64,000 nt of DNA, taken from NCBI GenBank assembly GCA_951406725.2, contig OX597816.1, positions 27,900,001-27,964,000 on the forward strand, read 5' to 3'. This document shows, one piece after another, positions 19,156 through 19,647 of this stretch. Position 1 is the first letter of the stretch. Each line of letters starts with the position of its first letter. Source of the stretch: Octopus vulgaris. Taxonomy: Eukaryota. The translations under genes were made by a program, and so were the position numbers. The notes under the pieces are model-generated. The model was given only the letters and a program-made list of their open reading frames with translations, was not told where the DNA came from and did not search any database.

Positions 19156-19647
19156 AAATTAATAGTTATCGCCATACTTATATGGCAGTCCTATAAATAT
19201 AAGACTAAAGCTGTCGCTGATTAGCTCCAAGAGGCCACCGCCTCAAGCTAGCTATTTGACACACAACCTGCGTCCATTATAAACCTTCGAACAGGGAGGT
19301 CAGCCGCTTCATCCTGCCAGTCAGACAGCTGCAGACATGTTTCAGGGTATTTGCCCTTTATCAATGCAGCGTAGTCAGACCCAGCAGGTGTCGCTACTGA
19401 CTGTCCCTGTTCGAAGAGTCTATTTACCTAGTTTCAGTGGAATACATCCACTTGTTTTCAATAATAGAAATATTAAAATTACTAAGTCTCTCTAAAGGAA
19501 ATTACGGCAGCGTTACTGGAAATTAATAGTTATCGCCATACTTATATTTATAAGACTGCCATATAAGTATGGCGATAACTATTAATTTCCAGTAACGCTG
19601 CCGTAATCTCCTTTAGAGAGACTTAGTAATTTTAATATTTCTATTAT
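19156..19647 (-). mobile_element. (TA)n-embedded HHR-bearing non-autonomous element with pseudo-LTR-like direct and inverted terminal structure (364-bp unit)
   Basis: 28-nt direct repeat 19156-19183 = 19520-19547; 87-bp palindrome arms 19461-19547 / 19561-19647; HHR at 19328-19370. Confidence 0.85.
19328..19370 (-). ncRNA. Type I hammerhead ribozyme, U3-A8 compensatory core variant
   Basis: Minus strand: gctgca UUGAUAA aggg-caaata-ccct GAAA catg UC tgcagc; stem I extends into a rod spanning 19285-19416. Confidence 0.8.

Follow-up and report, generated by a model that had tools for sequence, protein, structure and literature searches.

A 364-nt hammerhead-bearing element of Octopus vulgaris as a putative non-LTR retrozyme with the insertion footprint of Penelope-like elements

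The window copy and the family to which it belongs

The window analysed here is a 64,000-nt stretch of the Octopus vulgaris genome (contig OX597816.1, positions 27,900,001 to 27,964,000, forward strand). The element under study lies in a (TA)n microsatellite, the left part of which was recognised from the sequence at 19048..19155 and the right part at 19648..19667. Between these two parts, unit mapping revealed a long arm of 392 nt on the minus strand (19156..19547) and a short inverted arm of 107 nt on the plus strand (19541..19647). Upon numbering of the unit from window position 19547 in the hammerhead sense, the long arm was found to comprise 1.08 units (unit 1-364, then 1-28) and the short arm unit 345-364 followed by 1-87. 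The 28-nt direct repeat reported in the first-pass annotation was confirmed (19156-19183 = 19520-19547, 28/28 nt identical, spacing 364), as was the inverted tail, since the reverse complement of 19541-19647 matched 19461-19547 and then 19184-19203 at 105 of 107 nt. Both mismatches (19500 and 19191) sit in the long arm, where the window carries the rare family letter (unit 48, T 4 versus C 115; unit 357, G 3 versus A 166). The inverted repeat measures exactly 87 nt, with a 13-nt spacer. Additionally, the arms of this copy (L001) overlap by 7 nt at 19541..19547; this is the inverted microhomology CTTATAT/ATATAAG described earlier, which would join the inner (3') ends of both cDNAs. Any target duplication at this copy is masked by the TA repeat. 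Because the same structure was found at dozens of loci, the window structure is not an assembly artefact; a second copy was looked for within the 64-kb window and none was found. A repeat of ~220 nt at 18817-19041 lies immediately left of the TA run and has a related stretch in locus L165; it resembles the common SINE of octopus genomes.

The outer (3') end of the long arm lies at site A (minus strand, 19156..19164, unit 20-29), which reads …AACTATTAATTT and is followed by a TA run. The short arm starts inside a hairpin, and its outer end lies at site B (…TTTCTATTAT, then a TA run). This hairpin (minus strand, 19187..19206, unit 342-361), predicted by folding to have an 8-bp stem and a 4-nt loop, carries one private change in the window, at 19191. 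The "tail" of 59-61 nt that separates sites A and B also occurs internally, on the minus strand at 19461..19519 (unit 29-87).

The earlier proposal of a hammerhead ribozyme on a rod-like stem agreed with our folding results. The rod (minus strand, 19285..19416) gave a z-score of -8.3, with 0 of 200 shuffles as stable, and carries a candidate hammerhead at its tip; the whole unit folded with a z-score of -8.7 versus shuffles. The candidate, of which the window insertion contains a single copy, is a predicted type I hammerhead (minus strand, 19328..19370) with a U3-A8 core at 19358-19364, a palindromic minimal stem III (ACATGT) and a predicted cut at 19334/19333. In particular, the motif scan of the minus strand revealed stem I GCTGCA/TGCAGC, the core TTGATAA in its U3-A8 form, stem II AGGG/CCCT and GAAAC-AT-GTC; the C3-G8 and U3-A8 forms of the hammerhead core are equivalent. 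An Rfam scan of 17000-22000 returned no hammerhead family at E ≤ 1 and only sub-gathering look-alikes of microRNA hairpins, and the putative ribozyme is called here from motif and conservation, not from Rfam.

Conservation was counted using only letters common to at least two copies of one insertion, and L128, a duplicate of L126, was excluded from the rare-allele, ribozyme-conservation, pairing and stem III counts. The core letters of the ribozyme were fixed across subfamilies that are 4-18% apart: no variation was seen in the family at the cut triplet or at core positions 184-186, 189-190 and 205-209, position 7 of the core varied, and the stem I pair 181/217 occurred as G-C, G-U and A-U. 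Stem III, examined in 127 copies, read ACATGT in 90, ACGCGT in 27, half-way forms in 2 and other forms in 8; its palindrome was retained across the family, as a dimeric hammerhead requires. A modelled co-fold of two hammerhead copies paired the stem III palindromes, and dimeric cleavage of hammerheads with a short stem III is reported for amphibian retrozymes (PMC7229834). Two-sided covariation was sparse in the rod outside the ribozyme, with 4 two-sided changes, 20 one-sided changes and 36 breaks. These comparisons suggest that the hammerhead has been kept in the family, and cleavage is predicted.

The window locus belongs to a non-coding family spread through the genome, with a 364-nt unit, a conserved type I hammerhead and insertion into (TA)n. 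The genome search (2.8 Gb) returned 2770 first-look candidates, of which 40 were scored, at 95-100% identity; an exact 27-mer of the unit had 150 genome matches (control, 0) and the ribozyme core pattern had 635 (control, 18), and these three figures are not copy numbers. From 136 collected family loci, 20 were dropped as the same place or as copies of one duplicated segment, and the 116 mapped loci were found to consist of unit sequence bordered by unrelated DNA. No frame of at least 250 aa was present in the window copy, and long copies run on into further units and not into a reverse transcriptase/endonuclease (RT/EN) ORF; on this ground, a truncated stub of an autonomous Penelope-like element (PLE) was rejected. 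Unit periods were 360-365 nt, as expected of the periodic RNA template in the first-pass annotation. The tandem arrays that it had suggested looking for do exist in the genome: a search with a two-unit query revealed arrays of 3.2, 4.7 and 5.5 units, likewise bounded by sites A/B at TA runs. The longest arm measured 2015 nt, and its neighbouring cycles differ by 0.2%. Arms longer than one unit made up 18 of 112, and the median arm was 196 nt; the length figures come from the 127-arm set, and the 39-copy and pairing sets under-count long arms.

Several further observations were made on the sampled loci. Loci L117-L136 represent unit subfamilies 4-18% apart, some of them very young (L122, L125, L129, L130), and L123 and L127 show mosaic allele patterns that suggest recombination between unit variants. 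Five loci on C29 at 29.56-29.69 Mb (L012, L013, L016, L017, L025) are one insertion that was multiplied together with its flanks in a repeated segment spaced by ~9 kb, and L126/L128 and L176/L177 are similar-looking duplications. Contigs of four sequencing runs, which we guess to be RNA, cover 30, 30, 25 and 30 of 30 unit bins and are uninformative on the strand, ends, level and circularity of the unit RNA.

Outer ends, cycles and the template

The end census comprised 76 insertions, picked by the exact 27-mer among the first 100 of the 150 matches, with 127 arms in total, whose end positions are uncertain by a few nt within TA flanks. The outer 3' ends were fixed at two sites ~61 nt apart, each followed by a TA run: 53 arms ended at site A, 59 at site B (unit 84-96) and 15 at neither. 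Circularly permuted start points, which the first-pass annotation had anticipated, were not observed at the primed end, as 112 of the 127 arms end at A or B and variation occurs at the inner ends only. These inner ends were scattered, with a peak at the hairpin (unit 342-349), where 15 cDNA stops were counted in the 127-arm set against 4.4 expected (p 6e-5); the corresponding excess in the hammerhead core (13 versus 5.9) fell to 13 versus 8.2 (p 0.07) when long copies were included. The 28-nt repeat of the window had been read as the head-to-tail junction of an RNA; instead, 19156 is site A, one of the two fixed 3' ends, i.e. a priming site.

The two sites were combined in a regular manner. 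Among 68 head-to-head pairs, 50 were A-B, one was A-A (L066), none was B-B and 17 had an end at neither site, giving one A and one B end in 50 of the 51 two-armed copies with both ends classifiable (p 2e-14 versus independent 50/50 choice). Five listed members of the 17 have ends between A and B, which may be eroded B ends; the others lie elsewhere. A TA-run target was found at 41 of the 50 A-B insertions, and 9 had non-TA strings of 9-21 nt common to both flanks, candidate target duplications of which some are AT-rich and weak. The inner junction showed an overlap of at least 2 nt in 34 of the 50 A-B copies, a count without a chance baseline. As for arm reach, the tail-less arm extended further in 22 of 39 A-B copies, the tailed arm in 11, and both were equal in 6; either arm may thus reach further, and therefore two independent cDNAs are needed. 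We infer twin priming from these results, in which a single RNA is used and each site is served by its own subunit and its own target strand.

With regard to the template, the window inverted arm consists of 59 nt of "tail" and 48 nt matching the left end, and it does not extend across the hammerhead cut, the point at which ligation would close a circle. A linear RNA of 451 nt (1.24 units) suffices for both window arms; therefore, the circle is not demonstrable from the window locus by itself. The argument made from this locus for a circular or multimeric template consequently fails, and support for the circle comes from tests at the family level that the first-pass annotation had not proposed. 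In the three-copy test (3342 sites, 25 insertions), the letter that disagreed with the other two came from the previous cycle in 45 cases, from the last cycle in 53 and from the inverted arm in 56 (chi2 p 0.53). The previous-cycle class should be enlarged if the source were a linear array that had aged, and the inverted-arm class if duplication had taken place later in place; neither was seen. In 38 cases, an allele rare elsewhere (≤2%) filled both cycles of an arm, whereas unrelated cycles would give no more than 1.6; 13 of these alleles were found at no other sampled locus, and the rest are partly subfamily letters. Rare alleles in one cycle only numbered 165, as expected from decay after insertion. 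The young loci L129 and L130 differ from each other by 1.8%, with internal differences of 0.8% and 0.3%.

The ribozyme cut was crossed by 52 of 112 arms, with 3 stops at the cut versus 2.1 expected, and an indel within 4 nt of the cut was present in 2 of 142 crossings (the baseline elsewhere, 379/4718, includes subfamily indels and is hence loose). As no excess of stops or indels was found at the cut, linear hammerhead-cleaved monomers as the main template, or jumps between them, were rejected. The cycles of L006 differ at the segregating site unit 198, and unit 5 reads A and then T between cycles in L003, L020 and L107; such differences between cycles, at letters that also segregate in the family, are not predicted by a pure monomer circle. 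Overall, it is likely that insertion itself produced the arrays, scar-free at the cut and from the sequence of a single monomer, and a ligated circle is the simplest source of such arrays.

It is possible, although in our judgement unlikely, that twin priming by a PLE enzyme used an uncleaved linear read-through transcript of a fresh tandem array, with circles or a monomer bottleneck rare or absent. The 451 nt of linear RNA are all that the window locus needs, seamless crossing of the cut fits uncleaved RNA equally, long arrays are present as possible sources, and a few segregating alleles are discordant between cycles. Moreover, PAc (Poseidon of Anolis carolinensis) took unprocessed RNA in vitro, with hammerhead cleavage dispensable (PMC11167929), which favours linear templates for PAc. 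However, aged source arrays would raise the previous-cycle class, which is yet the smallest of the three, and a mutation in one cycle cannot fill all cycles without a monomer step, as the 13 locus-unique alleles do. Linear-only inheritance with a median arm of 196 nt would also shrink the arrays every generation, and the retention of the hammerhead core and stem III across subfamilies likewise speaks against it.

Sites A and B could alternatively mark where an endonuclease cut a DNA intermediate, either double-stranded or hairpin, the tail arising from the resolution of this intermediate and its joining to the target. Both sites are AT-rich and target-like (CTATTAAT, CTATTAT), and the tail is ascribed to EN-mediated resolution in PMC8557442; nevertheless, we consider this quite improbable, as the RT starts of PAc map to both tail boundaries in vitro (PMC11167929) and two separately truncated arms joined by microhomology are expected of two primed cDNAs.

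Slightly more doubtful still is the fold-back priming favoured in the first-pass annotation, in which one cDNA self-primes and the second arm is a copy of the first. Self-priming has been proposed for Adineta PLEs, with palindromic junctions read as its trace (PMC3846280), and 6 of the 39 A-B copies are symmetric, several of them centred on the 342-361 hairpin (L052, L098, L105). At the window, however, the 13-nt spacer should read GGCAGTCTTATAA after fold-back of the plus strand, and the reverse complement of this is present instead, so that the orientation of the spacer excludes this strand; fold-back of the minus strand was also rejected, since it yields only unit 1-87 of the 392-nt arm. 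Across the family, a single tail-primed cDNA cannot produce both the copies in which the tail-less arm reaches further and those in which the tailed arm does. Fold-back fails as a general route, and the symmetric minority may come from it.

The least credible explanation by far is either a MITE bounded by terminal inverted repeats or the later amplification of single insertions in place by unequal crossover: the outer ends are fixed and inverted, and local unequal crossover is offered as a model competing with circRNA retrozyme insertion (bioRxiv 10.64898/2026.07.22.740005), but, in line with the first-pass annotation, which had set its reading against a MITE, the ends are offset by the tail, many copies are one-armed, inner ends vary (arm lengths 24-2015 nt), arrays are bounded by A/B at TA runs, and the inverted arm, which later duplication would make the odd one, was not set apart (56 versus 53 and 45), so that in-place amplification is refuted for the 25 insertions tested.

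Penelope-like elements of the same genome and a proposed mechanism

A search for GIY-YIG domains (PF01541) gave 148 matches, many of them in intact frames of 781 aa. The 781-aa protein contains an RT domain (E 1.1e-6, just under the Pfam cut-off) followed by a C-terminal GIY-YIG domain, with a CxxxxCxxC motif before the latter; this motif is given for Neptune and Nematis in PMC8557442. The element has a unit of ~4.8 kb and a pLTR of ~456 bp, in which the core TTGATAA...GAAACATGT, shared with the 364-nt unit, was found. It is inserted in TA runs and has two ends ~35 nt apart, the second of which ends in CTATTAT like site B. An exact 33-mer of the element had 457 matches; all 9 of the 9 head-to-head copies examined were A'-B', and the ends without a visible partner were about 40 A' versus 6 B'.

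Loci L152 (430-5672), L155 and L159 (C16, C6 and C5) belong to a young intact PLE family encoding the 781-aa RT and GIY-YIG protein. This family has an upstream ORF of up to 479 codons, with no Pfam match over the cut-off, and ~90-nt tandem repeats in the 3' region; in its hammerhead core, stem I looks weak and the cut triplet is GTT or GTA. A second PLE family was seen at L160 (1821-2586 and 4218-4983), L164 and L166, in which the two 766-nt arms show 100% identity, a tail of ~30 nt is confined to one arm, and the core of a hammerhead-like motif reads CCGAAGA or CTGAAGA; one A-B-like head-to-head copy was found in this family, the first end of which reads TATTAAT like site A. The window itself contains a decayed PLE fragment at 60841-61263 (plus strand), which aligns to the C-terminal portion of the 781-aa protein at 27% identity (E 1e-10) and has a weak GIY-YIG match.

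Among 31 PLE loci (L137-L167), which sample only a few of the PLE families of the genome, no pLTR homologue of the unit was found beyond the ribozyme core and CTATTAT. When the unit was aligned locally to 10 PLE 3' regions, the scores were not clearly above those of shuffled sequence (best score 34.5, at L158, versus a shuffled maximum of 32). The enzyme class (PLE) is well supported, and the 781-aa element is the likely helper type; neither this element nor the second family shares alignable sequence with the unit.

We consider it probable that insertions of the octopus family are written in trans by a Penelope-like RT-endonuclease, with one cDNA per cut target strand and both cDNAs copied from the same RNA, likely a monomer circle. 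Transcripts of arrays with at least two hammerheads would cleave themselves, probably through dimeric hammerheads, and the resulting 364-nt monomer would then be ligated. A dimeric PLE protein would nick both strands of a target TA run with a stagger of ~10-15 nt, as the in vitro data for PAc and the footprint suggest. Judging from the footprint, one target end would start its cDNA at site A and the other at site B, and the cDNAs would differ in how far they extend (median 196 nt, 5.5 turns at most), passing scar-free across the cut and often stalling at the 342-361 hairpin. Finally, the cDNA 3' ends would anneal by microhomology and be repaired, so that the finished copy is head-to-head and only one of its ends carries the tail. 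At the window, the A-primed cDNA would have made 1.08 turns and the B-primed cDNA would have stalled at the hairpin after 107 nt. The window copy is likely a dead end, because it has a single hammerhead.

In L1 twin priming, the second target strand primes a second cDNA, and the head-to-head join is made by microhomology; the position of this second start varies, and there is hardly any overlap between the arms. In contrast, both starts are fixed in the octopus family and both arms copy the same RNA stretch, and therefore strand displacement is needed. A more specific version of the preferred mechanism, which we advance tentatively as a serious possibility, is that one dimeric Penelope-type enzyme is docked at two fixed sites of one closed 364-nt RNA, with a subunit per strand, and that both subunits run co-directionally with strand displacement.

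Relation to known systems and meaning

The first-pass annotation had placed the element in the context of retrozymes and PLEs, and this placement holds, as the unit carries a putative hammerhead together with a PLE insertion footprint; the family appears to be a new animal non-LTR retrozyme with such a footprint. Its overall features are highly similar to those of animal non-LTR retrozymes (PMC7229834; bioRxiv 10.64898/2026.07.22.740005): a non-coding unit of 150-450 nt (here 364 nt), a type I hammerhead, GC content under 50%, no LTR, dispersed monomers to multimers and co-occurrence with PLEs. The mussel retrozyme units, at 350-390 bp, are close in size to the octopus unit (same sources). Some differences were present. 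The octopus geometry is resolved, with two fixed primed ends, one of each per two-armed copy, and star-like cycles; TE homologues were described for 24 of 57 families of Xenopus retrozymes (bioRxiv 10.64898/2026.07.22.740005), whereas the octopus unit was without a pLTR homologue in our search. Circular RNA has been demonstrated for published retrozymes (PMC7229834; bioRxiv 10.64898/2026.07.22.740005), and a circRNA template has been proposed for them (PMC7229834), whereas the octopus family is known here from genome sequence.

Insertions of EN+ PLEs also resemble those of the octopus family, with a partial tandem and an inverted copy, a tail at one end, TA microsatellite targets and duplications of ~10 bp (PMC8557442 and PMC3846280). 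In contrast, the octopus unit is without an ORF, and its tail of ~61 nt is above the 30-40 nt reported for PLEs, which counts against the PLE reading. The tail is described there as "often at one end", compared with 50 of 51 copies in the octopus family, and self-priming or EN resolution is offered as the explanation, whereas twin priming fits the octopus family better; the origin of tandem, inverted and tailed PLE insertions is called undefined in PMC8557442. PAc shares two adjacent RT starts that bound the tail, cutting and extension of both strands, an AT-rich target and a predicted dimer. It differs in that the start sites were seen to be alike on both strands, the two sites were not linked to each other within one insertion, and linear RNA was used in that study (PMC11167929, for both comparisons). 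No paper with a one-of-each count, PLE twin priming or such a test of array homogeneity was found in a literature search that covered mostly titles and abstract openings and left subscription papers, including older Penelope reviews, largely uncovered.

The octopus family provides footprints that can be counted: each insertion has one A end and one B end, and the cycles date from the insertion itself. Within one genome, a 364-nt RNA can moreover be studied alongside an RT-endonuclease of 781 aa that is intact, present in high copy number and subject to the same end rule, which makes a compact test system. If the reading of a docked dimer on a closed circle is true, the genome would hold evidence that a circRNA undergoes rolling-circle target-primed reverse transcription, and a single mechanism would account for three features of PLEs, namely their tandem, their inverted copy and their one-sided tail.
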